Below are positions 15,707-58,800 of a stretch of DNA of 64,000 bases, piece by piece. Position numbers and translations under genes: made by a program. Numbering within the stretch: position 1 is the stretch's first letter; every line of letters starts with the position of its first letter. The notes below the pieces were generated by a model. That model ran no database searches, was not told where the DNA came from, and saw only the letters and a list, made by a program, of their open reading frames with translations. The stretch covers positions 23,482 through 87,481 of IMG/VR virus record IMGVR_UViG_2609460227_000001; one strand, written 5' to 3'. This DNA is from a virus (Duplodnaviria > Caudoviricetes).

Positions 15707-15775
15707 TTACACACGCGTGTGTATTAATGCTTTACACACGCGTGTGTATTAATGCTTTACACACGCGTGTGTATT
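15707..15775. repeat. 25-bp tandem repeat x2.8, each unit with the 16-bp palindrome TACACACGCGTGTGTA
   Basis: Unit ttacacacgcgtgtgtattaatgct at 15707, 15732 and 15757 (partial); overlaps TTTACA-17-TAGGAT promoter at 15756-15784. Confidence 0.9.
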
Positions 15776-17256: not shown

Positions 17257-17522
17257 CATCGATTGAGCAGCAACTAGAGCAGCAGCTAATCGACGCACTA
17301 CGTAAGGAAGACGCCGCCAACATCAAAAGCGGCGCTTACATGGTAGAGGTTCGCAGCACATTGGATGGCTCAATATACCAAGACGATGACGGGCGCCGCT
17401 ATTGGGGGAACGTTACCCGTCGCTGGGATGGCGAAGACGGTTTCCCCGAAGAAATGACAGCCAAATACTTTTACGATGAGCGCACCGGCAAATGGTACGC
17501 GTACACAAGCCAGTATGATTGA
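17253..17522 (+). CDS. Small hypothetical protein (paralogue 2)
   Basis: 89 aa; GSIY..W..VT..YFYD..W; GGAG RBS. Confidence 0.6.
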   Translation: MTSIEQQLEQQLIDALRKEDAANIKSGAYMVEVRSTLDGSIYQDDDGRRYWGNVTRRWDGEDGFPEEMTAKYFYDERTGKWYAYTSQYD

Positions 17523-18208
17523 TGAAAATCTACATATACGCTCGCGTATCCACTAAGAAGCAGGCCGATCGCGGCCTGTCTATCGATGCCCAGGTGGAGA
17601 ACGCAATCAACATGGCCAGAATGAGCCACCAGCGGGAGCCAGACGGCGTATTCATCGATATGGGTGTATCGGGTTCGGTTGAGTTGGCAGAGCGGCCAGA
17701 GGGCGGCCAGCTATTCAATATCGCCGATGACGGCGACGTGATCATTGCGGTAAAGCTGGATCGTTTATTTAGAGATACCGTGGATGGACTACTGACAGCT
17801 AATGAGCTGGTATTAGATCGCGGCGTGCAGATCATTACTGGCGACTTTGGCGAGTTGGATATTCACAGTCCAATGCGTAAATTCCTATTCACCCAAGCGT
17901 TAGCCATGGCCGAGTTCGAGCGTGCGAAAGCCGTAGAACGGACGCAAGACGTTAAGCGCAAACAGAGCCGCAGTGGTGCCTATTGCGGTGGATACGTACC
18001 AATTGGGAAAGAAGTTATCGAGCAGGATGGCAAGCGGATGCTGGTGGATGATGAAGACGCCGAGCATATGCTGCAGATCATGACCGATTTACGCCAGATA
18101 CGCGGCTTGAGCTACCGCGCTATTGAGCATGCAATGTTAGAGGAACACGGTTACACAGTGTCTTACAAAACGGTCGAACGCCAGTTAAAAGCCCGTGGCA
18201 TTGAGTAG
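17522..18208 (+). CDS. Serine recombinase (resolvase/invertase family)
   Basis: YARVSTKKQ, DMGVSG..ERP, KLDRLFR, AEFER. Confidence 0.92.
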   Translation: MKIYIYARVSTKKQADRGLSIDAQVENAINMARMSHQREPDGVFIDMGVSGSVELAERPEGGQLFNIADDGDVIIAVKLDRLFRDTVDGLLTANELVLDRGVQIITGDFGELDIHSPMRKFLFTQALAMAEFERAKAVERTQDVKRKQSRSGAYCGGYVPIGKEVIEQDGKRMLVDDEDAEHMLQIMTDLRQIRGLSYRAIEHAMLEEHGYTVSYKTVERQLKARGIE

Positions 18209-43733: not shown

Positions 43734-44078
43734 TGACAACTGCAGACGAATTAGACTTCCTCCTTGCCATTGACCCGTCAGATCATTATCCGTGACGGCA
43801 ATCAGGCAAAACTAGAAAACATCCGTGAATGGCTATCAACGCCAGAAGGCACGATCTACGGTCGCCCCGATTGGGGCCACCCACTTGATCAATTCCGCCA
43901 CGAACCACAATCACCATCAACGGCCTTAGCCATTGAGAATACGTTACTGCTAAAGCTGGCCAGTGACCTACCAGACGTAACCCTATCCCGTATCCTTGTG
44001 TCGCCTATGGGGAAAGATGGCTATTACATCGGGTTTGGTGTTCCCGAGGGTGTTATTGAGGAGGTGAAAGCGTTATGA
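43733..44078 (+). CDS. pmgA: PmgA baseplate protein (T4 gp25/gpW-like), indel near the start
   Basis: EWLSTPEGTIYGRPDWG..FRHEP. Confidence 0.7.
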
Positions 44079-45460
44079 GCCTCCAAGATGACATTAAAAA
44101 GGATTTCGAGGACAGCCTGAAAAAATCGTTATGGTGGTCCCGCTTCATTGGTTCGCAGTTTGTGGACGGGTTTTCCGTCTTCATTTATCAAATTGTTTAT
44201 CGATGCCAGCAGTACGCCAGCCGACGATTACAAGAGTCGTTTCTATCAAAGGCGGTAAAGGATTCTTCTATCCTGGCCGCTGCAGAGGATCGTGGTTATG
44301 TGGGCCTTAAAATCAGTCCATCGACGGGTACCGCCACCATTACCAATAACGGCACTACCCGCGTATCACTGCCGATGAATACCTCACTGGCCAGTAATGA
44401 CCTAGTTGATTACGTGACGATGGCCGCCGTTGAACTACAGCCAGCACAATCGGCTGATATTCCCGTGTTTCAAATGCGCATTGATTCCGTCGTTTCCGTT
44501 GTTACCGAATCCAAAAAATGGATGGAGGTACTACTAAGCCGGGATATGACAGAGAAGGCCCACCAAGTTGACGTGTATGTAAACGGCCAGCTATGGGAGA
44601 AGCGTTTTAAATTCCGAAATACAAACCGAAATTCCAAAGTGTATATGGAGTTTTATAAGTCCACTCGTCAACTAGGTATCCGTTTCGGTAACGGTATTAA
44701 TGGCCGCGTTCCTGCCGTTGGTGATGAGATCCGCTTGAACGTCTGGATGACACAGGGCGAAACAACATTAATCGATAACCAGCCGCTCAAGTTTACCGGC
44801 CGATTTGAGCCACTGAACGATTCAACGAAGATTATCACCAAGACGCCGATCACTGGCGGTGCACCGGGCGAATCGATAGAAGACACACGTAACGGTGCGC
44901 TCTACTCCACCAGCTACGATTACCAATTGGCATGGGACGGTGATTACGTCCAATTTATCACTGATAACGTTGGTGGCGTGATTTGGCTATCTGTTTGGGG
45001 TGAAAAAGACGAAGAAGCTGTTACCGGCAAGAAAGACATTGCCAACATCAACAAAATCTTTATCTCGGCTTACTCAGACCGTAAGGATGGCGACAAGCTG
45101 GAAGGAGAAATTAATGGGCTATTTTCCGGCCGTAGTGGATACAACGAAAGTTACAAGTTTAGACAGCCTGTAATGCAGCCGTACACCGTCAACATTGCGG
45201 GCCGCGTTGTTGCCAACGGTCGCCCGGAAGACGCTGAGATTGTGCTGCGTTCGGCGCTGGTGGAGCGATACGGTATCAACATCAAAGATAAACCATTCCG
45301 CGTGCCGGTCGATGAGATTTGGGATTTCATTCATAGCCTAAAACAGCAGGCGAACATCCGTGAATTTACCGTCACGGCGGACAACCTACCGCAAGAGGTA
45401 ACAGTCGGCCACTATTCCTATCTGGATATTGACGCCTCAACAATTAAATTCACGTACTGA
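44075..45460 (+). CDS. bplA: Baseplate wedge BplA (gpJ/T4 gp6-like)
   Basis: WSRFIGSQFV, SSILAAAEDRGY, IRFGNGINGRVP, ITGG. Confidence 0.85.
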   Translation: MSLQDDIKKDFEDSLKKSLWWSRFIGSQFVDGFSVFIYQIVYRCQQYASRRLQESFLSKAVKDSSILAAAEDRGYVGLKISPSTGTATITNNGTTRVSLPMNTSLASNDLVDYVTMAAVELQPAQSADIPVFQMRIDSVVSVVTESKKWMEVLLSRDMTEKAHQVDVYVNGQLWEKRFKFRNTNRNSKVYMEFYKSTRQLGIRFGNGINGRVPAVGDEIRLNVWMTQGETTLIDNQPLKFTGRFEPLNDSTKIITKTPITGGAPGESIEDTRNGALYSTSYDYQLAWDGDYVQFITDNVGGVIWLSVWGEKDEEAVTGKKDIANINKIFISAYSDRKDGDKLEGEINGLFSGRSGYNESYKFRQPVMQPYTVNIAGRVVANGRPEDAEIVLRSALVERYGINIKDKPFRVPVDEIWDFIHSLKQQANIREFTVTADNLPQEVTVGHYSYLDIDASTIKFTY

Positions 45461-45468
45461 GGCTAACA

Positions 45469-46292
45469 ATGAGTAACTGGATAAAAAACCGATTAACCAA
45501 AGCCAAACAGGAAAGCCCGCTTTGGTCTGACCTGGCAGATTCCATCCAATCCGTTATAGGTACCCACGTAGAAACCTATCTGGACCGACTAAAACGCCGG
45601 GTATCCTTGTTTGATGCAGACAAAGAAGATCTGCAGGTTATCTTGACTGAATTGGGCGACTTCTTTGCATTGGGTGATGTTGAAGACGACGACATTGCAT
45701 TGACAGTGATGCAACGCCAGGATGAGATCCACCAGAAGCGAACGATTTACCCATTAACGAACACAATCAACCGTGAATTTGGCGGTATGAATGTAACTTG
45801 GGAGCCGTTGTATGCGCCGATTGACCAGGTGAAATATCCCTATGGTTCGCGTCTGGTTATCGAATCAGAATTGGAGCAAGAGCTAATCCCTCGGATGAAT
45901 GGTTCCTGACAAGTCGCGGTGCTATCCGTGTCCCACTGAACGAGGTTCACCGGGTATTCAACGCCACCGACGCTGGTATGGGTGAATTTGAGGACCGATT
46001 ACGTCGTGTAATCTACCCATTGATACCGTTGCGCGTCGTGTGTGAAGGCCAGCAATACTACTTGTACTATGACCTGGCAGAGCACATCGAACGACTTAAC
46101 ATTGTGCAGTCGAACATCGAGCAGTATCCTATCGCCACCAGCGAAGCCGATGAAGTCGCAGACATTAACAACAGTGTTGTCTCTAGCGCATTTGATTTAG
46201 GCCTTCCGGTCGGTGAAATCGTCAAAAACACCGAACTTCTTATAGATGAAATTCCAATTGATTCTTTTGCAAGCGACTTTCAATTAGAATAA
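45469..46292 (+). CDS. P1 gp16-like baseplate protein (indel near 45895)
   Basis: WIKNRLT.AKQ.SPLW, QRQDEIH.K, VTWEPLYAP, PLIPLR. Confidence 0.75.
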
Positions 46293-46368
46293 CCATCCTA
46301 ACGACATCCAATGCAGGAATTATGTCGTTAATCCCCACCTCCGGGCTGCGTGCGCTAGAGAGAGCACA

Positions 46369-46800
46369 ATGTCCACCGCCACAATTTCATCGAACTTGCA
46401 GGATGCCAAGCTGCTAAATCGGTACTACGACCGACGCGCACTTTCATCCCTGCCACAAAACAAAGCGACGTTTCAGTTTGGGCGCATTCAATGGGCCTCA
46501 GACCTAGTTGACCTCATCGACGGGAAACCGGTTTTACGCCCTATTCCTAACGACCTTGAACGACTGGAAAACGTATTCCTAACCAATGACGCCGTTTATA
46601 CCTATGCGAACGGCATTATCTATATCCGCTGTACGGTCCAAACCGGCGCACTACCAGAAGGCGAACAGCATTCATTTTCTGCGTGCGGGATCCTTGATGA
46701 TGCTGGTGGTTTGATTGGTGTTGGTATCACGCCGCCCGTTTGGCTGTACAAAGAACGCGGCATGGTTGTCGAGTTTGAAATTCGCACCAACATCGGGTGA
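46369..46800 (+). CDS. Tail fibre attachment protein, P1 gpR-like
   Basis: 143 aa; LLNRYYDRRA; precedes the S fibre. Confidence 0.7.
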   Translation: MSTATISSNLQDAKLLNRYYDRRALSSLPQNKATFQFGRIQWASDLVDLIDGKPVLRPIPNDLERLENVFLTNDAVYTYANGIIYIRCTVQTGALPEGEQHSFSACGILDDAGGLIGVGITPPVWLYKERGMVVEFEIRTNIG

Positions 46801-46806
46801 TCACTC

Positions 46807-48715
46807 ATGGCCAGTGATATTCAAACTACCCGACTCACATACGCCGACCAGGGGGCGTTGCACTTAATTGCCGACTTGGCATTTAACGAGCAATACACCT
46901 CGGCGGCCCTAAACCGAAAATTCTACGGTATAGCACGCCCTGGTATTTACCGAGGCTTTAACTATGCCATCGGTGAAGGCCTGACGATGACCGTCGGTGA
47001 TGATTCAGGTGAAGACACGGCGTATGTAGAACGTGACCGACACTGTATGACCATTCATGGTCAGCATGCCGTCACACTCAACATTCCCGCCGGTGTTAAA
47101 TCTGCGATCGTCATTGAGGGTTTTTATCAGTACGGCGTAGAAACCAAACAAGTCAATTCAAACAGTCAAACCGACGCGGCGACGATGAAGGTTATCCCCT
47201 CATCGGCGATTGAGTCACACCACGTTGTTGTCTGCGAAGTGTCAGTGCCTACGGGCGCAAAGGCAATCACAGCAAACATGATCAGCGAAGATAAACGTAT
47301 CGCTGGCGGTATCGATCTTGCGTCACACATCGATGTCACCAAAGACCCGCACAAGCAATACGCCTTTCGTAAAATCAAGATCAACACGGTTGGCCCGCTA
47401 CGCGGTGGCCATGACCTATCCGAAGACCTAACACTTACCGTGGACCCATCTACCGTGGGTACCGCTGGCGTTGTTCAGTTGGAAGATGGATCGACATCAA
47501 ACAGTATCGTTAAAGCGCCGACCGCCTATGCGCTCACACGCGAGCGTATGCGTGCCGAAGGTGCCGAAGCCGAACTAACGCAAAACCTTGCAGATACAGA
47601 AGTACGCGTAAAAGCCTATGCCGATGGCAAAGCCAACGAAGCAGAAGGCCATGCGCGGGTTTATGCCGATCAGGTTGGTGCAACCACACTGGCCAGTGCA
47701 AAAACCTATGCCGATAACGTGTCACGTCAGGCACAGGCCAATGCAGAAGCCGTCGCCATCCAACAGGGTACCGAAGCCAAACAGCACGCGGATTCCGTTG
47801 CGGCTGACGCAAAGAAAACGGCGATCGCACATGCCGATCAGGTTGGCGTTGATACCCTGGCATCAGCAAAGGCCTTTGCAACATCGGAAGCCAAAGCCGC
47901 CGAAGGCCGAGCGAAAACTTTGCGACCTCAGAAGCACAGGCGGCAGAAGCCCGCGCAAACGCTACAGCACGTCAATATTTCGATGATGTTGTCGCGGTGC
48001 CGGTGATGCCTATGACACCCTGCTCAAGATTCAGCAGGAATTGGTCAGTGATGACAACGCCCAGGCGGCACTAACTGCAGAAGTGGCCAAAAAGCTGGAT
48101 AAGACAGCTACAGCCGTCAACTCCTTAAAGCTGGAAGGTAAATCAAAGTCAGAGGTGATCACCGAGGCCCGTAACGGTTTGGCTACGGTTAGCCAAGCGC
48201 AAAACATGGCCAACTCGGCAGAGAACAACGCCAAAGCTGACGCTGCCTCAAAATACCTACCTAAAGGTGCGACAGCCGTTAACTCGGACAAGCTGGGTAA
48301 CGTTGCGCCGTCTGGCTATCACCGTGCGACCCGTGATCTCCTATCTGGCGGTGTAACCACCACCGAAACGCTAATGAGTTGGCTCCAATCACAAGGTGCA
48401 TTCGACTTTGCGGCGTGGTCATGCCGTTGTTCCTGGTCATACGCAGATAACGGAAACATCCCTGATAGCGAAACAACATGCGGGACTATTCCGCTGGCCG
48501 GTGCCGTTATCGATGTTTACGGCGCACTAGGCCGTTGCACTGTAGTGATCACCACGGCGACCACTAGCTCAGACGCGAACGCGAAGAAGCAATCCAGATT
48601 CACCTATGTGGATAACGGTGATGCCTATTCGCCAGGCTGGGTACGCGATTTCAATACCGCCAATCCACCAAGTACCAGTGATGTAACTGGCCGTATCGAT
48701 TTCGGCCGAATTTAA
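46807..48715 (+). CDS. Proximal tail fibre, P1 gpS-like (indels at 47920-48000)
   Basis: EQYTSAALNRK..PGIYRGF N-terminus, DPHKQY, GVVQL..S, YDTLLKI, WLQSQGAF..SWSYA..LAGAVI repeat; ends IDFGRI. Confidence 0.85.
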
Positions 48716-48771
48716 ACCTCAATCACCGGCTGGTGGTTGAGGCCACCAGCCGGTATGGAAAACCCATACCC
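48716..48771 (+). promoter_or_regulatory. Two-state hairpin element upstream of distal fibre A
   Basis: Stem1 48717-48727/48732-48742 and mutually exclusive stem2 48725-48736/48743-48754. Confidence 0.6.
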
Positions 48772-51124
48772 ATGATCGAAGATGTTCAATTTAAACGAAT
48801 GATCGAACCAGCCGAAAGCCAACTCCGGCAGAGGTCGCGGAAGGTTCATTTGTCGTAAACCTGGCTGACCGTCAAATTTATACGCTGGACCATAATGGCA
48901 AGGTTATTTCCGTTGGTGGCGGCGGTGGCGGCGGCGTTCCCGTTGGTACCGTCTTGGCATTTACTAAGTTGCCATTGCCAAAAGGCTACCTGCAGTGTGA
49001 TGGCCGCGAATTTGACCCGATCCTATATCCAGAACTTCACACCCACCTTGGCGTAAATACAACGCCAAACATGACTGATAAGTACCTAAAAGGCATTGGC
49101 GAGGGTATTTCTCCGCTTACAACCGTGCCATGGATGATCCCGGAACACAGTCACAACGTTTCGTCGTCACTTGGTTCTACTCGCCTACAGAGAAGTTTTA
49201 ATACTGGCGGCGGCGGTACGCACAACCACAGACTTTGGTCATATGACAGTGATGGTGAAGGTAAAGCCGGTGGCTTGGGTACTTGGTCAGCTAAATCAGG
49301 TGTGGGTACAGCACTAAATTCCGGTGGTTTCCCTGGCCAACAATACATGAATGGCGACTCCGCTGGTCACAAGATTGTTGAGGATAGCGGCAACCACTCT
49401 CACTCAATCAATGTGGACTTTGGTTCGCATGGCCACAGCCTGAGCGTTACAGCAAGTGGCATCAAAGAAGCCTTAAACAAAGGCAATACGCTTGACGTTG
49501 ACCACGTAACCGTCGTGTTCGGTATCCAGCAACGCCACAGGTGGATGATCCGCTAAGACTCAACGCCGACAAGGTTGTTGAGGACATGCGCACCATTCAG
49601 TCGGAATTTGAAGACTACAAAAACCGCGCTTCACTGCCGGTTGGTGCCATCGTTCTTTTCCCTAAACTACCTGTCCCTGCCGACTTCCTGCCTTGTGACG
49701 GCCGTAAATTCGATAAAGATTTGATGTCCGATCTTTACGCGTACCTGGGAACGGATACGACGCCGGATTACACCAAGAAATACGTAAAAATGATCAGTGA
49801 TGAGTTGTCACCACTACAGACAGTAGCGTGGATGATCCCTGAGCATACGCACAACTTCTCGGGTAGCGGGAACACGTCACCAGTAACTCTAAATAAACGT
49901 ATAAATACATCTAGTGCAGGTAATCACCACCACTCAATTACAACAAACGGTGACTCAAATACCAGCAATGGTTCAATTTCAGCTTCTCGTGGCAGTTCAG
50001 CAAGCTATACAAGATACACAGGAGATTCAGGAGTCCATTATCACTACATGGACGTAAATTTCGGCAACCACACCCACTCATTTTCTGTTTCTGGCGTATC
50101 AGCCGGTATCAAGGAAGCAATCAGCAAAGGTGACTCACTAGAGGTCGATCACGTTGGCGGTGTGTACGCGATTAAATGTATTGGCCGTATCGATGACGCA
50201 CAGCAAATCGCAGCCAAGGACGTAATCGCAAAGGTAAATGACCTTTCAAATAAAGTAGTAAACCCTAACTTATTTGATAACGCCGACTTCACCGTTTCTC
50301 AACGAGGAAACCTGCGACAAATGTTTCATACCTGTATTTTGCCGACCGTTGGATCCTACGTGGCACTGAGAATACAGGCGGAACATCGGAATATTCGATT
50401 CAAACCCACACTGGCGAACCATACGGCAATTATCTGTACGTTAAGCATAACAATGCCACCGCACATAGTTACGTCATTCAACGCGTGGAATCTAAAACAC
50501 CAAGCGAACTATATGGCGATCTAACATTTAGCTGTTACTTGACTAACAGCCAGCCAGCAAGGCGACTTTGTATATTGATTGGCGTCATGGCGATACGGGT
50601 GTGGTTATTGACGAAACAAGGCTAACCCTACCAGAAAGAACCGTTGAGAATGGATGGTTCCAAGAAACATTTACCTGCCCGAAATTACCAGAAGGGACAT
50701 CATTCTCGAATCTATTCCTTAACGTTGAACTGCGTTATGTAAACGCTGCAGATAATACCTGTAATGGTACTTATCGTTTTTCATGCCCGAAGTTAGAGAA
50801 AGGCACCGTAAGAACAACGTTTGTCCCTGAACGACCTGCAGTAAACCTAGCCAAATGCCAACGTTACTACACGCGTATTCACGCAAGTGGTGAAGCTGGA
50901 CGCACAGGATCCGTTGCCGCTTACAAATTCACAGTCGTATTCCCTACCACCATGCGAACCACCCCGGCAATGAACCTTATAGGTGTAACTGCACTTATGG
51001 GGTGCACATGTACAGCACAAGACATCAATCCTGAATCATTTGCCCACACCATCAGGCCGACAGTTGGCGATAACGCGGCGTTTTACGCAAACCTAGCCTA
51101 TACGAAGCCGACGCGGAGCTTTAA
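48772..51124 (+). CDS. Distal tail fibre A: gp37-like N-terminus, two collar/HxH modules, C-terminal domain (several indels)
   Basis: VQFKRMIEP..AEGSFVVNLADRQIYT; two P(V)GxxxxF..CDG collar domains with HSH/HNH/HTH motifs; ends DAEL. Confidence 0.8.
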
Positions 51125-51129
51125 TCAAC

Positions 51130-51499
51130 ATGAACAACAGCATCATTAAATACGCCGACGAACAGCAACAAGCCGTCTACGTTGGCGATATGTTTATTCC
51201 CCGTGGCCACCGATTTTGGCTGAATACGGCGTAGATACTGCAGAAGAAAACGGCGAGATCTTCCCTCACGATTATGTCGAGAGTGAACAGCTTGCTATGA
51301 ACACTCAATGTCAAATGGAGACAGAGCTTAAATGGTTGATATTCAGCTTAAATACCATGCAACCAACGATACAAAACGCGCAACCATCCCGCTCAATACG
51401 CTGTATGAATACGCCATTGCATGCCGTGACCACGTACAGCTAATCGATAACAAACTGACTATTATCGGCGAGAAACCAACTCGCCCAGTAGCGGAATAA
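51130..51499 (+). CDS. Tail fibre assembly chaperone A (indels)
   Basis: KYADE..FIPRGHRFW..YAIACRD..RP. Confidence 0.6.
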
Positions 51500-51547
51500 G
51501 AAACCTTGATTGCCCAGGCAGTCAAGCCGCCTGGGCCGAGATACAAA
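51500..51547 (+). promoter_or_regulatory. Two-state hairpin element upstream of distal fibre B
   Basis: Stem1 51505-51514/51517-51526 and alternative stem2 51512-51519/51529-51536. Confidence 0.6.
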
Positions 51548-53977
51548 ATGATCGAAGATATTCAATTTAAGCGAATGATTGAGCCAGGCCGGAAACCAAC
51601 TCCGGCCCAAGTTGCAGAAGGCTCATTCGTTATTAACCTGGCAGACCGCCAGATTTACACAAAAGACCACAACGGGAGATTATTTCAGTCGGTGGTGGCG
51701 CTGGTGGCGGTGTACCAGTCGGGACCGTACTGGCATTCACTAAGTTGCCACTCGCAAAAGGTTACTTGCCTTGTGATGGCAGCGAGTTTGACCCAATCCT
51801 TTATCCAGAGCTTTACCGTCACTTAGGCGTCAACACGACGCCAAACATGACCGATAAGTATCTAAAAGGCATTGGTGAGGGCATTTCGCCACTGACAACC
51901 GTGCCATGGATGATCCCGGAACATAGCCACAACGTTTCGGCTAGTGGAACAACCGGAGGCCAAACACTAAACAAGCGTTTTTACTCAAGCAGCGACTCAC
52001 ACAATCACACATTTAGCAGACCAAGAGGTGATAAAGATTACTCTAACGGTGGTTCAAACGGCACTTGGTGGGGGCCATCAGCTAACGTCAAAGTAACCAC
52101 ATCAACAGATACGCATAACCACTATACCGATGTAAATTTCGGCACGCACACGCACTCGTTTTCATTTTCAACCACGTCAGCAGGCATCAAAGAAGCCTTA
52201 AACAAAGGCAACAAACTAGACGTTGACCACGTAACCGTCGTGTTCGGCATCCAGCAACGCCGCAGGTCGATGATCCACTAAAACTCAACGCCGACAAGGT
52301 GGTTGAGGATATGCGCACCATTCAGTCGGAATTTGAAGACTACAAAACCCGCGCATCATTACCGGTTGGTGCTATCGTTCTTTTCCCTAAATTGCCGGTC
52401 CCTGCCGACTTCCTGCCTTGCGACGGCCGCAAATTCGATAAGACGCTATTCGCTGATCTCTATAATTACCTGGGAACGGATACAACACCGGTCTACACGG
52501 CGAAATACGTCAAGATGATCAGTGATACGTTGTCACCGTTACAAACGGTGCCGTGGCAAATCCCCGACCACTCGCACTCAGTTGATGTATCGCATACCCA
52601 CACCGCAACATTCCGAGGAAACCCACTACCAAACCACTATCACCAAACTGGTAATCCATGGTCAAACCTCCATTCCTATAACGTTTCTCGTTTCGGCAAA
52701 GACGTTACTGGCAACGGTTCGGTAGCAACCGAAACGCAAAACTCGCTGCTCGATCGTATCCACGAACAGAAAACAAATCCGCAGGTACACCATCAGGCTC
52801 GGTGTCCGTGACTAACTTTAGCGGGAATAAAGTATCGTCAGGGATCAGAGAGGCCATTAACAAAGGTCAGTCACTAGAAGTTAATCACATCGGTGGTATT
52901 TACGCGATCAAGTGCACTGGGCGCATCGATGACGCCCAACAAATCGCAGCCAAGAACGTGATCGCAACGGTTAACGATTTAACCACCAGCATCGTTAACC
53001 CAAACATTCTAATTAACGGCGGCATGCAGCTATGGCAACGGGCCCTAAACTTTCCCTCACCTGAGTTTGGGACGTACACGGCTGACCGATGGATAGCGGC
53101 AGGTAACGGCTGCAAACAAGAAGTGCGTTACTGGAAGGATGGCCCTGACCGATGGCTCGCCGTGATTGGTGGCTCCAATCAACTTGATGGCTGGTCGCTC
53201 ATCGCCCAGCGTGTTGAGTCTTCACAAGCACGATTACTGATCGGCAAAGAACTGACATTAAGTTTCGATATGTTCGGATCAGAAGGCGCAACATACAACA
53301 AAGCCGTAGCATTCATTGACTATGCCAGCAAAGATAACAATTTTTGGGAACTGGTTAATGGCCAAACATTCGAGCAGCCTTTTGTTTGTGGCGAACGGAA
53401 GCGGCTTGTCTTCAATCTTGGCGTCGTGACAGAAGAAGCATTGAACGGCCTTCAAATCAAACTAGGTGCCTCCGCGCCAGGTAAACAAGAGTCAGAGAAA
53501 AACCTGCTTATCACTAACGTAAAACTGGAAGTTGGGCGCATCGCTACGCCATTTATTGCCGGTGGGTTTGATGACAACTATCAGCAATGCTTACGATATT
53601 TCCAGAAAATCGACATTGGCGTAAACACCTACAAGGGCACACTGTATGGCTCGGCCGGGCAGTCTGCGGGCAATGTTTATGGCGAGTTAATGGCCCTTCC
53701 TCAAATCATGCGCGAATGGCCAACCACGAAATACATTAAAACAAACGGCGAGAGTAATAATTACTGGGTTGTTGTCGGTATCACCCCTCTAACAACGAAC
53801 AACGCTAACGGCTTAACCGTGGAATGCGACGGTAAACACTGGCGATTATTACAGACGCCAGCAACAGCCTTTAAACCATTTCGAGATCCATTCAACGCCA
53901 CTCCCAATACAGTTGAAATGAACCAACAAGGTATCTGGGAGCCTTCATTCCAAATCCAACTAGATGCAGAAATTTAA
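51548..53977 (+). CDS. Distal tail fibre B, paralogue of A (several indels)
   Basis: IQFKRMIEPGRKPTPAQVAEGSFVINLADRQIYTKD; same constant blocks as A, different variable loops; NILINGGMQLWQR..ADRW; ends DAEI. Confidence 0.8.
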
Positions 53978-53986
53978 AAAGGAAAC

Positions 53987-54354
53987 ATGATGTACCGCTT
54001 CACACAAAACAATAACGCTATTACCCACGACGGCATGACAGTGCCGATTGCCATGCTGCACCGTGCTGGCCTTGAATCATTCAAACAGGCATACGAAAAC
54101 GGCGATGTATTACCTTACGAAACAGAATCAGAAGCAAGGAACGCGAATTAGCCATCAAAGCAGGCCGTGAACGCACATGGCGCAATATGGAATTGACGCT
54201 GGTGGACCATGAGATCAACAGAATCATGGATCTTGAGGTGGCCACACAAGAAAGTAAGGCCAAAGAGGGGGAGTTACGGGCATATCGCCGAGCATTACGC
54301 GACTACCCGCAGCAGGCTGAGTTTCCAAACTGCCAGCGACCATCGATTGATTAA
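53987..54354 (+). CDS. Tail fibre assembly chaperone B (indel)
   Basis: ERTWRNMEL..YRRALRDYPQQAEFP..RP. Confidence 0.65.
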
Positions 54355-54372
54355 TCTATCGCTTGTTTTTCA

Positions 54373-54395
54373 AAGGCCGGATTTCCGGCCTTTTT
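54373..54395 (+). terminator. Intrinsic terminator after the fibre operon
   Basis: aaggccgg-attt-ccggcctt-ttt. Confidence 0.7.
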
Positions 54396-54458
54396 ATCCT
54401 AACAATCGATCGAACAGCCGAACAAGTGTTATCATCCTCGCGCCGGAGGTAAGAAAAC

Positions 54459-54790
54459 GTGAAATTCATCATCACGCTTGAGCTGACCATTCTCGTGTCT
54501 GTCCTCGCGATCCTGAGTGGCGTCGGCTCGTACCTCCAAGGGGTGCGAGAAAACCGGCTTAAGGGTGGCGTTATCGACTTTCTAGCAGAGGTCGTTCTGG
54601 CCCTAACAGTAGGCTAGGCATCGCATACACAGGGCACAGCCTGCAATGGAATGAAGCCATGACATGCGCCCTGGTACTCGCATTTGCCAACAATGGGGCC
54701 GATACATTGGCCTGGGCTAAAAAACTAATACGGGAATATTTATCTCGAAAGTTCGGGATAAATGATGACAACAACCAACAACAGAAATAA
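54459..54790 (+). CDS. lydA: Holin LydA (indel)
   Basis: LAILSGVGSYLQGVRE, EVVLALT, ANNG; GGAGG RBS; P1 synteny. Confidence 0.7.
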
Positions 54791-54800
54791 CGGGGCAAAT

Positions 54801-55211
54801 ATGTACCTCACATACACCGGTCTGGCGATCGGCCTAGCTATCATCGATCGCTTTATGCTTGAACGCCGAAAGGTTCACATCGTAGATGTTGAGAAATGTG
54901 AAGACGACGCACGACATATTCGTTTCGCCATGCGATTTCAAACTAAGCACAAGTTACGCGGAAGCCGTGTGAGTTATACGCTGCGTGACAAGAAGGATCC
55001 GACAACTGTCATTAATGGCAAAGAACGCCCGCTTGATTTCTCACACACCGGGGAAAACAACGAATTTTTGCTATTCAACAAAAAGCTACTGACCGAGCCG
55101 GGACGCTGGGTGCTAGACGTAAAAATCACATCGGACGGCTCGCGTATCAATCCGCTATACAAAATCTTCCCTATAGAAACAACATTCACCAAGGAATTTG
55201 AAATTGAGTAA
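54801..55211 (+). CDS. lydB: Antiholin LydB
   Basis: IIDRF, LRDKKDPTTVING..LDFS.GENNEFL, SRINPLYKIFPI. Confidence 0.75.
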   Translation: MYLTYTGLAIGLAIIDRFMLERRKVHIVDVEKCEDDARHIRFAMRFQTKHKLRGSRVSYTLRDKKDPTTVINGKERPLDFSHTGENNEFLLFNKKLLTEPGRWVLDVKITSDGSRINPLYKIFPIETTFTKEFEIE

Positions 55212-55827
55212 GGGCAATGGCCGCCGCCAGACGGCATATACCGTTGTTGATTTCGACAACGTAACAGAGCAAGGCCTAAAGAGCCTATTGGATGACCTAA
55301 AACGCGCCGGTTCGCCGGTATCAGACGTTGAAGCCAATAACCGTAAAGCCAAAAAAGACATGGTGTATGTCAAAAAGGCTAAGTTGTTTTTTGAAAACGG
55401 TCAGACAGCAACGTTATTCATCGGTGATCAGGGCGACATCTATCAGCTAGTCGTGAATGGGAAGAAAACCCCGCTACCGGATGCCAAAAATGAACGCCAG
55501 TTCGCGCAAGGCCTCAATAAGATCTTAGAACGTGGCCAAGAGGCTTTTGATAAGTCACAGCTACGCAAAGCAAAGCAGGTAAAGAACACCTCCACGACAC
55601 AACCAGCCAGCCGCAGCCTAAAGAAGCGAGCAGAAGAAGCCCGTCAGCACATTGCCACACTGCAGCAAAACAAAACTGACATGGACGCCGCCCTATCTTC
55701 CGCACAGGCAGAAAAATCGACTAGCCAGGATCAGGTTAACAAACTGACCGCCACGCTAGAGGCCGAAAAACAAGAAACCAAAGATCTGAAACAGCAGATT
55801 GATAACATGCAGGAGTCAATGCACTAA
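55198..55827 (+). CDS. hdf: Hdf, DarA-like antirestriction accessory protein
   Basis: YTVVDFDNVTEQGLKSL, GDIYQL.VNGK, coiled-coil C-terminus. Confidence 0.8.
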   Translation: MKLSKGNGRRQTAYTVVDFDNVTEQGLKSLLDDLKRAGSPVSDVEANNRKAKKDMVYVKKAKLFFENGQTATLFIGDQGDIYQLVVNGKKTPLPDAKNERQFAQGLNKILERGQEAFDKSQLRKAKQVKNTSTTQPASRSLKKRAEEARQHIATLQQNKTDMDAALSSAQAEKSTSQDQVNKLTATLEAEKQETKDLKQQIDNMQESMH

Positions 55828-58800
55828 TGGCTGTACCATTCAATCGCTACCGTGCAATCCGCGTAGTAAACAAAATCGACCACATGGCCAAAGGGATCCC
55901 TGACGAGGTTTTCGAGTCATTACAAGAGGGTGAACTAGCCGACCTATTGCTCGAATCCGTTACCCTGGAAGACATCGAAAACACGTTGTGTTTTGGTATG
56001 GCCACCACCCAAGACATCATGCTAGAGGCGATTTCCGCCAAGAAAGCCCGCCTATTGGGTACCATGCAGGCATTCACCCGCGCACTAAATACGTCACTAG
56101 CCGGCACCAATATCACTGCAGACAAAGATATTGAGATCAGCAAACCACGTAAGAGCGGCACCGTCGCTGTTATCACTGCAAAGATCAACCTATCTGATGG
56201 CCAGAGTATTTCCGTCGTGTTCCACGCGCCAGATAACGATCCAATGGTTATCAAAGACCAGGACACGCTGATCGCCTTCCGCTTCCTGCTTAACGCACGC
56301 GACGTAACACACTCAGTAGCACCGTCTGGTGGTAATGAGGTATCACTAAAGCAGGTAACAACCGCGCTATCTAATCTAGCCGAACGTAACAGCGCAAAGT
56401 TTGTGGCCAAGCAGACAGAAAACACCGGTTTAAAACAAGAAATCGACCAGGCAGCACAGCTATCTGAGCAATTGGAAGAAGAACTGCGATCCACCAGCGA
56501 CACGATCGAACAAGTAAAAGCGGATACCGAAGACCTCAACAGCAAGATCCAATCACTACAAAGCCGTATTGATCGTGAGAATGCCCTGCAGGAGAAGCTA
56601 CGTTCACAGCTTGACGGCATGAAAGTGGCCCAAACCAAAGGAACGACAGATACCGGCGATTTCATGAATCACGTATCTGGCATGGATATTCTTAAGGTCG
56701 AAGCACTACAGGCTATCGGTTACACGTTCAGCTATGACGATGAAAAGGGCTATAGCATTACAACGCCTGACGGTAAAACCACGGTCAACCGGATGTATGC
56801 AGACTTTATTACGCAAGTTGATTACCTCGACGATAAACGCCTAGCAGCCGCAACCACAGCCCAAAGCGCACAGTCTGGCCACCCGGCAAATCAAATGGAC
56901 CTGCGTAACTACAACCCACCAGCAAAACCAACTAACGGCAATTCATTTAGCAAAATGAAGGCGAGTGATATTGCTAAAGGTCCATACACGATCAAATGGG
57001 GCAACACAGATACCGCCGTTGTGACATTGCTTGATGACGGCCGCTATCAGCTAGACCTATCAATCGATAATGGCCTGCAAACGGATACCGCGTATTTCGA
57101 TAATTTCCGCCAGCTAAAAAATACAGCCAGCAAGAAATACGATGAGCTTTATGATGACCACATGAGCAACCTTAACGCGAACCGATACACGGAAGATGAG
57201 CTAAACCGTGCGGCCAATGCTGGTGGTTCAGATACAAATGGACACAGCCTATCGCCAGAACAGCGTAAGGCGGCACTGGAAAAAATCTGGAAGAAAAAGC
57301 ACAAGGACTTCAAATCAGGCCGTGGTGACAAGCGTACAATCATGGTAAATGGTTCCATTGTTGGTGCCGGTGCAGGTTCAACCATTGTTCCACTTAACAG
57401 CCTAAGCGATGATGAGATCGCCAAACTGCTAAATACCACCGTTGGCGAGCTATCCGGCGCCGTCGCCGGTGTGCAGATTGACCCAAGCATTCCTAAAGGC
57501 AATTCAGTGGCTACAGCCATGGCGGCCGTTGAGGCGGAAGGTAAACGCCAGAGTTTCGATAACGTCATGAAGCACATTCCTGACAGCCCAGCTAAGGCCG
57601 CGATCAAGGAAGCCGTTAGTGATGCCACACCGAAGTATGGGTTTTACCCGTCAATGACCTCGGGATTTGACGAGGCATTACAAATCCTGCTCGATAACAA
57701 TGTCACTGACCATGACACCCTAATGGCCAGCATGTATGACTTCCATAAATTTGGCTATTTGCCTGCAGACTCACGTTCGGCGCGAGCTAACCGTGAACTG
57801 GCCATTGAGAAGCAAAAAGAGCTATCTGACACCATGCGCATTGCGGCCCACCGCAAAACCGATGAACCGTATCGGCTGCAATGAAGATGGCCATTGAGGA
57901 ACTACCGAAATTCCACGCGAAGGCAGGCAGTAACCTTTTATCATTGGTGAATGAAGCGAACGCCGCCATGGCTGGATCGAAAACGGCCGCAGTTGAGTTT
58001 CTTGAAGGTTATAACCGCGTACTCGGCTCAATGGAAATGATCGGCTACGGAGATAGCGCACCGGCTAAAGCAGTACCGGCCCAATCCACCGCACCAGCAC
58101 CAACACCAGCGCCGACACCAGCACCAGCGAAAGAACCAGAGAAAACTATTATCCCGGTAGGTGGATCTTTTGAGTTTGGGGGCGGCACTTTCCGTTACGT
58201 TGGTATGGTAGGTAATGACCATATTAAGGTTTACGATGAAGATGACCGTGAAGAACATGTGATCGGCCGCAATCAGCCTATGACTAATCAGCTAGTGTTC
58301 GCTGGCTTTAATGATGGCGTCAAAGAGAAAGAAGCCGAAGATAATGCCAATGCTGTCATTGGCGGCCTAGACCTATCAGCATTTATCGAAATGCTCCGTG
58401 GCAAGCCATATATGTCATTCGATGGCCAGGATGCGATCTACGATGCTTTGCGAGAAGCGGGATACAATACAACCGATGCCATGACGATTGCGAAGAAGGC
58501 CCGTACCGACTTCAACATGGGTAAAGAAACGGCGATTCAATACACCGCACCAGAAGAACCAAAACTGTATTGGTATGGTATGCGCACGCGTCCGTTTGGT
58601 ATCGCCTCTCAGCCTGATGGCCATGCAGCCTACAAGGACCAGGAAGAAGCGGCCAAGATGTTCCCTGATGCGCCCGAGCAAGCTATCCGTTTTGGTATCG
58701 TAGGCTATCCATCGCCACTATCTGAGCGCGACATTTCTCATTACAGCCTTACCGACATGCAAGCCAAGCCAGTAACCGGTGATGAGGACTATGCAAACGC

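Follow-up and report, generated by a model that had tools for sequence, protein, structure and literature searches.

Phages with two receptor-binding fibres must set the amount of each, and how they do so within one operon is poorly understood. The locus studied here raises this question through two short spacers, each ahead of a distal fibre gene and each able to fold into hairpins, and we asked what these hairpins are and what they might do. The window, a stretch of 64,000 nt of viral DNA, belongs to a P1-like phage with two tandem distal tail-fibre genes, each with its own leader. The genes of the fibre operon are as follows.

46807..48715, + strand: proximal (P1 S-like) tail-fibre gene, split in the record into 46807-48006 and 48041-48715; stop codon TAA at 48713-15
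48772..51124, + strand: distal fibre gene A (fibA), with a T4 gp37-like N-terminus and collar domains; frameshifted in the record
51130..51499, + strand: putative fibre A chaperone (tail-fibre assembly) gene, assigned by inspection and position; frameshifted, stop codon TAA at 51497-99
51548..53977, + strand: distal fibre gene B (fibB), paralogue of fibA; frameshifts near ~51673 and ~52253 in the record
53987..54351, + strand: putative fibre B chaperone gene, C-terminal end ...RAYRRALRDYPQQAEFP; frameshifted in the record
54372..54397, + strand: intrinsic terminator, GGCCGGA/TCCGGCC followed by a T-run, closing the fibre operon

The proximal fibre gave PHROG tail-fibre matches, and tblastn aligned it to the P1, D6 and P2 fibres at 37-41% identity. 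Its two reading frames overlap at 47987-48006, which fits the G-run deletion type found at other sites of the record, and we infer that the two pieces are one gene. The record carries single-base G/C deletions. In fibA, an extra G after 48810 was present in all three runs examined, and an extra C after 51096 in runs X2 and X3; with that C the protein ends in ...ADAEL, as in the homologue P0001. Runs X2 and X3 show one more G at two sites of chaperone gene A (after 51217 and 51333) and one more C in chaperone gene B (after 54134); all three runs add a G to fibB at two sites (after 51673 and 52253). The pseudogene look of the fibre genes in the record is a sequencing artefact. Pieces of chaperone gene A found no match in PHROGs, and a family scan of the first 54 residues encoded by chaperone gene B returned 0 families; we take the latter gene to be of the Tfa-type family. 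The fibA/fibB region is a duplicated leader-fibre-chaperone cassette, and the cistron directly before leader B is the small putative chaperone gene, not a fibre gene.

The two leaders, which as intercistronic spacers measure 56 nt (A) and 48 nt (B), contain the following elements.

48716..48771, + strand: leader A, between the upstream stop codon TAA (48713-15) and the fibA ATG (48772)
48714-48754, + strand: leader A module, AAACCU followed by segments alpha (48717-27), beta (48732-42) and gamma (48743-54)
48717-48727 / 48732-48742, + strand: leader A helix 1 (alpha:beta), 11 bp with one U.G at 48723.48736 and the loop GGCU
48725-48736 / 48743-48754, + strand: leader A helix 2, 12 perfect bp
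51500..51547, + strand: leader B, between the upstream stop codon TAA (51497-99) and the fibB ATG (51548), with the module starting AAACCU from 51501
51505-13 / 51518-26, + strand: leader B helix 1, 9 bp in the record, with a U.G at the place homologous to that in A
51512-19 / 51529-36, + strand: leader B helix 2, 8 bp

The initial annotation had stated that both leaders begin with AAACCT and can form the same two mutually exclusive, overlapping hairpins, and the coordinates together with shuffle controls confirmed this. In leader A, the first two A's of AAACCT are part of the upstream stop codon. The same annotation placed the hairpins just past the upstream stop codon, and helix 1 was indeed found to start 2 nt after it in A and 5 nt after it in B; relative to the T of this codon, alpha starts at +4 in A and at +7/+8 in B. 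Stem 1 of leader B had been drawn with ten pairs; the helix does form, with 9 bp, while the tenth pair would close a 2-nt loop. The letters common to both leaders are short, namely the flanking AAACCU and AGGCC in the loop of helix 2, and the loops of helix 1 differ (GGCU in A vs CCAG in B). AU-rich single-stranded runs lie directly 5' of both modules. A search of the whole genome with the module consensus found matches with 0 mismatches at 48714 and 51501 only; all other matches had 2-3 mismatches or were Chi words.

Both leaders were much more stable than shuffled sequences, with z-scores of -4.93 (A) and -4.05 (B) and 0 of 200 shuffles equally stable. The best fold, and the best fold with no pair in common with it, were each matched by 0-1 of 500 dinucleotide shuffles. 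The two leaders were then compared in a manual, structure-fitted alignment, using leader B with an extra G after 51525 that was seen in two metagenome runs (X2 and X3) and not in the probable source run. Judged from these reads, leader B of the record probably lacks this G; with it added, the two copies align better and their folds become near-isoenergetic. Twelve substitutions separate A from B in this alignment. Helix 1 kept 11 of 11 pairs through 4 double changes with no break, in agreement with the four compensatory pair changes first noticed in stem 1, and the U.G reported at the same position proved homologous. In helix 2, one of the 10 pairs is broken and 9 are kept; 3 double changes fall in it, and a 2-nt deletion in one arm is matched in the other. 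When the same substitutions were placed randomly and both helices were scored jointly, a Monte Carlo test gave P = 0.0015 with G.U allowed and, with Watson-Crick pairs only, 4 hits in 400,000 trials (P = 1e-5).

As for the strand, both copies have the wobble at the homologous position, and the complementary strand would show it as an A.C mismatch; the + (mRNA) strand alone tolerates this pair as U.G, and the element reads as mRNA-sense. The leaders differ in their stem letters yet have the same shape. A conserved structural element, with both exclusive helices kept by compensatory changes on the mRNA-sense strand, is supported by the comparison of the two copies. On the sequence evidence, the two-helix leader is probably a real regulatory RNA structure. 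The covariation comes from two paralogous copies in one genome plus one near-identical relative, and with only two paralogous copies the element is for now a well-founded hypothesis rather than an established motif. A resemblance that arose by chance, or that is left over neutrally from the duplication with no structure under selection, would have in its favour that just two sequences were compared through an alignment fitted by hand. Against such an origin stand the shuffles, at most 1 in 500 of which was as stable, the Monte Carlo P values of 1e-5 to 0.0015, and the persistence of both helices through the 12 aligned differences, so we regard it as highly improbable.

Energies of the two folds were near-isoenergetic when the extra G was included in B (-29.7 vs -30.6 kcal/mol for A, -21.0 vs -21.9 kcal/mol for B), and helix 2 was dominant at equilibrium in the sequences of the record. 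Wider sequence context altered the fold, and B then formed a helix of ~20 bp with an asymmetric internal loop, none such being seen in A. The dominance of helix 2 at equilibrium suits a static punctuation mark, in which a stable stem-loop after each cistron would help to process or stabilise the mRNA, either by forming a 3' barrier or by capping the 5' end left when the AU-rich stretch near the stop codon is cleaved, and the alternative pairing would carry no regulatory meaning. GC-rich hairpins also occur directly after stop codons elsewhere in this genome (10310-33 and 29151-75), the start sites are not sequestered, and AU-rich single-stranded runs precede both modules, all of which would agree with punctuation. 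However, were helix 2 alone of importance, the 4 double changes in helix 1, its lack of any break and its kept wobble would be difficult to account for, and the near-isoenergetic folds of both copies with the extra G also speak against punctuation. We therefore consider punctuation possible, though doubtful, as the whole explanation.

Helix 2 of leader A has a further property at the DNA level.

48729..48750, no strand assigned: inverted Chi octamer pair, GCTGGTGG on the + strand at 48729-36 and its complement at 48743-50

The octamer GCTGGTGG is the Chi recombination hot spot, and the pair makes up most of leader A helix 2. Chi is the commonest 8-mer of this genome, with 89 sites against ~2.4 expected, and it also occurs in the arms of other intergenic hairpins of this genome. 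P1 itself has reportedly been described as rich in Chi, and the present genome resembles it in this respect; the likeness to a Chi hot spot lies in the exact octamers that leader A carries on both strands. Leader B contains no exact GCTGGTGG, the nearest Chi being at 51700, inside fibB, and thus Chi cannot be the function common to both leaders. The Chi pair is best regarded as superimposed on the RNA module of leader A, and the case shows that a Chi pair can overlay an RNA helix. Being a Chi palindrome nonetheless gives helix 2 of A a reason to exist on the DNA alone, which counts against a purely RNA-based reading.

The abundance of Chi, with one site per strand in leader A and others in the arms of further intergenic hairpins, together with the location of the modules exactly at the 5' edge of the duplicated cassette, could also point to a function of the DNA. 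The nested palindromes would then mark a cassette junction, a hot spot of recombination or duplication, and the compensation would come from palindrome-templated repair and not from RNA-level selection. Several observations speak against it: leader B is without Chi; the T.G mismatch, which templated repair would be expected to remove, is kept at the same position in both copies; neither more module copies in the genome nor a long-range inverted partner was found; and in a relative ~95-97% identical, part of fibre A has been swapped inside the gene (~49500-50850) and not at the leader. Such a junction is improbable as the explanation of the modules.

A different proposal is that the leaders are operators for a translational repressor of phage or host that binds RNA, or for RNase III, with the shape and AAACCU ... 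AGGCC being recognised. Shape is kept while the stem letters vary, the short letters AAACCU and AGGCC are common to both copies, and the helix of ~20 bp with its asymmetric internal loop that B forms in wider context would be a fitting target. Nevertheless, A has no counterpart of this long helix, the loops differ, no candidate protein was identified, and the keeping of two exclusive helices would be unexplained. We consider this proposal improbable as well.

How far the leaders of other genomes agree was examined by sequence searches. Megablast and blastn searches of phages and plasmids with the region gave nothing usable. The fibre N-terminal piece in tblastn matched 30 phage records, all by the collar domain only and at <30% identity, and no plasmid. 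HMMER against 1.8 billion representatives returned 774 matches, mostly collar domains; among them the fibre N-terminus was common only to P0001, P0003, P0004, P0043, P0028 and P0092. Single proteins and a protein alignment searched in viral, genome and metagenome contigs yielded no independent homologous locus, and of the searches with degenerate DNA patterns for the fibre N-terminus, one hit 6 loci (L001-L006), all of them chance on inspection, and two gave 0. The module consensus, searched in viral contigs, hit one sequence on two contigs (L007 and L008), an 11-bp look-alike hairpin with T.G at the same position; it was rejected as belonging to an unrelated context, since it is flanked by convergent genes where a PDDEXK-nuclease-like gene ends and lacks both a second helix and a neighbouring fibre gene. 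Rfam searched over 46000-55000 with E up to 10 gave 4 matches and 0 at the gathering threshold, and the only match within a leader was P26 (17.4 bits vs a threshold of 36, E 7.4). The comparison with homologous leaders that had been proposed produced the near-identical relative in runs X2 and X3, which for leader A has no change at 48635-48835 among the 23/25 differences listed for the contig piece, and no independent homologue in the collections searched.

With these results, we tentatively read each leader as a two-state element that acts in cis on the polycistronic late mRNA and is reset by ribosomes; its trigger and its effect on fibre translation we infer. The module would span ~40 nt and consist of AAACCU and, 3' of it, three segments complementary to one another, and would have been duplicated along with the fibre-plus-chaperone cassette. 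In growing-chain folding, helix 1 was complete at 32 nt, and alpha:beta would thus be paired ahead of the transcription of gamma, so that helix 1 would form first. A ribosome terminating at the stop codon, 2-5 nt upstream of helix 1, would then open part of it, and beta would be free to pair with gamma as helix 2. Given similar fold energies and a high barrier, the element would behave as a two-state device reset by ribosomes rather than an equilibrating one. Its output would likely be to tie or to throttle initiation at the weakly signalled fibre gene through translation of the preceding cistron.

The modelled barrier from helix 1 to helix 2, taken from a direct-path heuristic and hence an upper bound throughout, was 18.5 (A) and 20.1 (B) kcal/mol in free RNA, and fell to 2.5-8.0 (A) and 6.7-13.9 (B) kcal/mol when the ribosome footprint at the stop codon was masked. 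The path of the upstream ribosome overlaps one arm of the structure in both leaders. The suggestion in the initial annotation that the terminating ribosome flips the fold is thus plausible in the model, though in leader B such a ribosome would mask only ~2-6 nt of alpha. The module might even be a portable cassette header acting as a memory written by ribosomes, with state 1 locked kinetically until the first finishing ribosome flips it near-irreversibly to state 2. This stronger version is unlikely; if true, each fibre cassette would record the translation of the message ahead of it, licensing or limiting the fibre, and it would represent a new class of translation-history sensor within phage structural operons.

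We also considered access to the start sites. The SD region and the AUG lie outside both helices in A and B, and across all modelled states the AUG was unpaired with a probability of 0.62-0.82. The element had been placed ahead of the RBS, and neither helix covers the SD; the RBSs themselves are weak, with anti-SD duplex energies of -3.3 (fibA) and -3.0 (fibB) vs a genome median of -4.3. For leader A, opening the start site was modelled to cost 10.6 with helix 1 vs 6.9 with helix 2, ~3.7 kcal/mol apart, whereas for B this cost was unchanged or shifted in the direction opposite to A, since helix 2 adjoins the 30S footprint there. Neither fold consistently hides the start site. The proposal of the initial annotation that the element fixes how much of the two fibres is made relative to each other was unsupported.

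According to a review that covers translational coupling, unfolding of inhibitory structure by the ribosome couples rpmI to rplT over +52 nt, and structure just after a stop codon correlates negatively with coupling (PMC12548453). The coupled pairs treated there (E. coli rpmI-rplT, phage f1 VII/IX, MS2 coat-lysis) resemble the present leaders in spacer length, in having structure in the path of the upstream ribosome, and in the weak initiation signals of the downstream genes; there, however, the structure covers the downstream RBS, whereas here neither helix does so and two exclusive ones are kept (PMC12548453).

The two-state reading also has parallels in other leaders, and several identities could be set aside. 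For the two-state idea, a likeness in arrangement is one of overlapping alternative helices with a stop codon at the foot of the first, so that ribosome position would select the fold, as it does in the model used here. In trp-type attenuators (1:2/2:3/3:4) and in the plasmid repY-repZ and tap-repA leaders, which have this arrangement, a terminating ribosome remodels the RNA. Unlike these, the present leaders have no U-tract terminator, a full structural gene lies upstream, and no pseudoknot or activated start was identified. The leader of the maturation gene of phage MS2 is kinetically controlled; the likeness is in the idea that folding order and slow refolding, rather than equilibrium, set ribosome access, but it is the 5' untranslated region of an RNA phage and not an internal spacer of a DNA-phage operon. 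REP elements, T7 RNase III sites and T4 promoter-early stem-loops are intercistronic and stabilise or punctuate operon mRNA. They share GC-rich hairpins right after stop codons within operons, whereas they are multi-copy and conserved in sequence, and the module here has two copies and a second exclusive helix.

An intrinsic terminator was rejected: helix 2 supplies a GC-rich stem (12 bp in A, 8 bp in B), but the letters after it, ATGGAAAACC in A and CGAGATACAA in B, are not a U-tract, and a terminator scan found no site in either leader. No promoter-like site and no TCCTAACA box were found in the leaders. A transcription attenuator with a leader peptide does not fit either, the upstream ORFs being fibre and chaperone genes with no terminator following. 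Readthrough of the stop codon into a fusion was also rejected: the frames do not match in A, and in B they match only if the extra G is left out, as in the record. If both helices were combined in an H-type pseudoknot, its 1-nt loops could not bridge 7 + 11 bp. Invertase crossover sites of the cix/gix/hix type consist of two inverted 12-bp half-sites (..AAACC / GGTTT..), with inverted copies flanking a segment; the leaders have only the AAACC half, no inverted partner was found in 44000-56000, and the sole serine recombinase gene is at 17519-18208, ~30 kb off. In the bypass of T4 gene 60, take-off and landing codons match and the gap begins with a stop codon and a hairpin. Candidate codons were GAA...GAA in B and ATT...ATC in A; bypass of this type was judged unlikely, since the fibre N-terminus is as in free-standing homologues (P0001, P0003, P0004, P0043) and also because the ORF before B is a chaperone gene.

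If selected, two exclusive folds in a small module that travels with each fibre cassette would offer a compact candidate for such control that lends itself to testing, and would also give an example, from a DNA phage, of the kinetics of RNA folding being linked to the traffic of ribosomes. Leader A has two further elements of its own.

48755..48775, + strand: mini-ORF of six codons (MENPYP), whose TGA overlaps the fibA ATG (ATGA)
48752-58 / 48764-70, + strand: third hairpin of leader A, adjoining the fibA ATG

The mini-ORF has no counterpart in leader B and hence may be due to chance; the GAGG upstream of it gave an anti-SD duplex energy of -5.6. The third hairpin did not appear in the initial annotation.

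The window makes up the final 64 kb of an 87,481-bp virus record, and its PHROG matches include tape measure, baseplate (44075-45460), tail tube and fibre genes, followed by lysis-determinant, Hdf-like and Dar-like genes. Judged by sequence resemblance, the record's phage is a distant relative among the P1-like phages. The identity of its fibre proteins to those of P1, D6 and P2 was only 37-41%, and megablast of the region gave 0 matches in 50,697 phage and 72,556 plasmid records. The fibre operon was arranged as follows.

46807-48715, + strand: proximal fibre gene, P1 S-like
48716-48771: leader A, after the proximal fibre gene and before fibA
ATG at 48772, + strand: distal fibre gene A (fibA)
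51130-51499, + strand: small gene, fibre-assembly (chaperone-like) by inspection
51500-51547: leader B, after the small gene and before fibB
ATG at 51548, stop at 53977, + strand: distal fibre gene B (fibB)
53987-54351, + strand: second small chaperone-like gene
54372-97, + strand: canonical terminator with T-run, end of the fibre operon

The gene upstream of leader B was the small chaperone-like gene and not fibre A, and the gene order indicated that the repeated unit is leader, fibre and chaperone. Two genes of the region were each in two pieces, probably through a single-base error: the S-like fibre gene (46807-48006 and 48041-48715; break at 47987-48006) and the tail-tube gene (45469-45909 and 45978-46292; break at 45909-45978).

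Frameshifts break fibA, fibB and the two chaperone-like genes in the record. Contigs of three public runs were compared over 48000-54400, namely X1, the probable source run, and X2 and X3, which represent one metagenome sample with a related phage. All three runs, X1 included, had one G more than the record after each of 48810, 51673 and 52253, and X2 and X3 alone had a further extra base after 51096, 51217, 51333, 51525 and 54134, every such site being in or beside G or C runs. Reading frames were restored by four of the five X2/X3-only insertions, and the C inserted after 51096 gave fibre A the end ...ADAEL, as in P0001, an intact fibre homologue of 1051 residues. These results suggested that the fibres are most likely intact, the record carrying single-base deletions and the broken fibre and chaperone genes being sequencing artefacts; the break in fibre A near 49528 had no cover by the relative. 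The fifth X2/X3-only insertion, a G after 51525, falls within leader B. By analogy with the other insertions it is probably missing from the record too; since it is absent from X1, the two phages may instead really differ here.

Both leaders start with AAACCT and can form two overlapping hairpins, helix 1 and helix 2, which were all present as first proposed.

48717-27 / 48732-42: leader A helix 1, 11 bp, U.G at 48723.48736
48725-36 / 48743-54: leader A helix 2, 12 bp
48752-58 / 48764-70: leader A third hairpin, one base short of the ATG
51505-13 / 51518-26: leader B helix 1, 9 bp, U.G homologous to that of A
51512-19 / 51529-36: leader B helix 2, 8 bp

In helix 1 of leader B, the stem proposed initially holds for 9 bp with the U.G at the same position, but the tenth proposed pair would leave a loop of just 2 nt; once the extra G is included, C51504 gains a partner. 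Compared with dinucleotide shuffles, the z-scores of the folding energies were -4.93 (A) and -4.05 (B), with 0 of 200 shuffles as stable. The alternative fold, defined as the best one sharing no pair with the minimum-energy fold, was matched by one shuffle in 500 for A and likewise for B, and by none in 500 when B carried the extra G. These results confirmed that the structural observation is real and beyond chance, and the corrected sequence strengthens it. As a separate feature of leader B, the last codons of the chaperone gene (51484-94) are a possible second partner for the 3' arm of helix 2; the resulting helix of ~20 bp (51484-51536) encloses helix 1 and holds the stop codon in an asymmetric internal loop, with no counterpart in A.

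The two modules, which are paralogues, were aligned by hand, with the extra G in B and the alignment fitted to the structure, and the alignment shows 12 substitutions (10 transitions, 2 transversions) and two gaps of 2 nt. All 11 pairs of helix 1 were kept, 4 of them through double changes and none with a single change, bearing out the compensatory changes claimed for it, and the U.G wobble was indeed at the same position in both copies. Of the 10 pairs of helix 2, 9 were kept, 3 of them through double changes, and one was broken (G-C to A.C). B lacks 2 nt in the loop of helix 1, with a corresponding loss of 2 nt in its helix-2 3' arm. Since a base can have one partner in helix 1 and another in helix 2, several positions show three-way covariation. 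In a Monte Carlo analysis, in which the same substitutions were placed at random and both helices scored jointly, both held up as well as in the actual leaders in 0.15% of 200,000 trials when G.U was counted as a pair, and in 4 of 400,000 trials with Watson-Crick pairs only. For helix 1, MAFFT on the record's sequences agreed with the register of the hand alignment.

On the opposite strand the conserved T.G would read as an A.C mismatch, which points to mRNA-sense RNA. Palindrome-templated DNA repair as the source of the compensatory changes is disfavoured: such repair would erase the T.G mismatch, yet it was retained. At the DNA level, Chi (GCTGGTGG) was the commonest 8-mer of the genome (window plus the preceding 23.5 kb), with 89 copies (53 on +, 36 on -) vs ~2.4 expected. 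In leader A, helix 2 is built from a Chi on each strand (48729, 48743), Chi arms also occur in hairpins that follow other genes (10310-33, 29151-75), and leader B contains no Chi. In our reading the Chi pair was superimposed on the RNA module and is not a shared function of the leaders: Chi would have arisen in the central segment of module A, and retention of helix 2 would then have yielded the complementary Chi. The relative in X2 and X3 retains leaders A and B, the N-terminal adaptor, the chaperone gene and fibre B, and does not cover fibre A from ~49500 to 50850, suggesting that the receptor-binding part was swapped there, within the gene and not at the leader; this also speaks against the leaders as recombination joints. 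The relative had no difference at 48635-48835, a stretch that takes in leader A, among the 23 of 25 listed for that contig piece; for leader B the listing (40 of 183 rows) did not extend to substitutions. The palindromic hexamer TGGCCA was also frequent in the whole genome (126 copies vs ~20 expected), and ATGGCCA occurred 53 times, several at ORF starts (639, 2131, 8804, 46807, 60310).

Other readings of the leaders were rejected. They have no U-tract, and a terminator scan found none there; they have no promoter-like site, and the box TCCTAACA, which may be a promoter or operator in this phage, is absent from both. This box has 16 copies on the + strand and 4 on the - strand, nearly all intergenic and ahead of + strand operons (for example 33566, 54397 and 60211), one of them straight after the fibre terminator. 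The module occurs only twice in the genome, so it is not a dispersed repeat. An invertase site would have only the AAACC half-site without an inverted partner within 44000-56000, and the sole serine recombinase gene is 30 kb away. That gene (17519-18208, Resolvase family, E 4.9e-27) lies ~1.8 kb downstream of three tandem copies of a 16-bp palindrome, TACACACGCGTGTGTA, at 15708-15773 with a 25-bp period, which may be a resolution or partition site. Fusion through readthrough or bypass was judged unlikely because the frames of A are unsuited and homologues begin with the same N-terminus as free proteins. Rfam gave no match to the leaders at the gathering threshold, and no independent homologue of leaders or cassettes was found in phage, plasmid, viral, genome or metagenome sequence searches. 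An 11-bp hairpin in IMG/VR contig L007 (1501-1529; also in L008) matched the module consensus, including the T.G position, and was rejected for its unrelated context and lack of helix 2; it is part of a longer hairpin (MFE -32.9, z -6.35) located where a PDDEXK-nuclease-like gene ends, with convergent genes on either side.

In a 96-nt context of A, the helix-1 and helix-2 conformers had energies of -29.7 and -30.6, a difference of ~1 kcal/mol, which is small because helix 1 permits the full third hairpin. For B, helix 2 was favoured in the record's sequence (-17.6 vs -21.4), and with the extra G the two were near equal (-21.0 vs -21.9), with ensemble shares of 0.30 and 0.61. In growing-chain folds, helix 1 was complete at 32 nt, ahead of the 3' arm of helix 2, and the direct-path barrier from helix 1 to helix 2, an upper bound, was 18.5 kcal/mol (A) and 20.1 kcal/mol (B), suggesting that helix 1, once formed, would persist in the model. 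Counted from the first base of the upstream stop codon, helix 1 starts at +4 (A) and +7/+8 (B). Going by its footprint and helicase positions, a terminating ribosome should hide 8-12 nt. Masking these left 2-6 helix 1 pairs in A and 4-8 in B, made helix 2 a much better fold, and lowered the barrier to 2.5-8.0 kcal/mol (A) and 6.7-13.9 kcal/mol (B). A terminating ribosome on the upstream stop codon could thus open part of helix 1 and let helix 2 form; the flip proposed initially is physically plausible in the fold model, more so for A than for B.

The Shine-Dalgarno region and start codon are left uncovered by both helices in both leaders. The anti-SD duplexes were weak, -3.3 (fibA) and -3.0 kcal/mol (fibB), the genome median being -4.3 for the best starts of 126 open frames, and the modelled unpaired probability of the AUG was 0.62-0.82 in every state. 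In A the modelled opening of the 30S footprint cost 10.6 kcal/mol when helix 1 was formed and 6.9 when helix 2 was, since the latter disrupts part of the third hairpin, whereas in B helix 2 reaches into the footprint and the effect would be opposite. With uncovered start sites and opposite effects, no common output can be named, and the part in setting the A:B fibre ratio proposed initially is hypothetical. When either leader is folded locally, the minimum-energy structure pairs helix 1's 5' arm with the first codons (UGAUCGA); this short helix vanishes with wider sequence context.

The leaders fit the class of intercistronic RNA structures, and a pair of helices both selected and mutually exclusive is unusual and matches no known family. 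A review of translational coupling describes coupling by unfolding across a spacer of similar length in rpmI-rplT (+52 nt), and a negative correlation between coupling and structure just past the stop codon (PMC12548453). Tentatively, the most likely reading is that each fibre cassette carries a cis-acting two-state mRNA element, which would interact with ribosomes finishing the upstream cistron; the main rival is a static hairpin for processing or stability. As a two-state element, the leader module is a neat, testable hypothesis based on two paralogous copies. An ORF like MENPYP is absent from leader B; in leader A this six-codon ORF (48755-48775) has a TGA overlapping the fibA ATG, and a GAGG exposed in the helix 2 loop lies 12 nt upstream.
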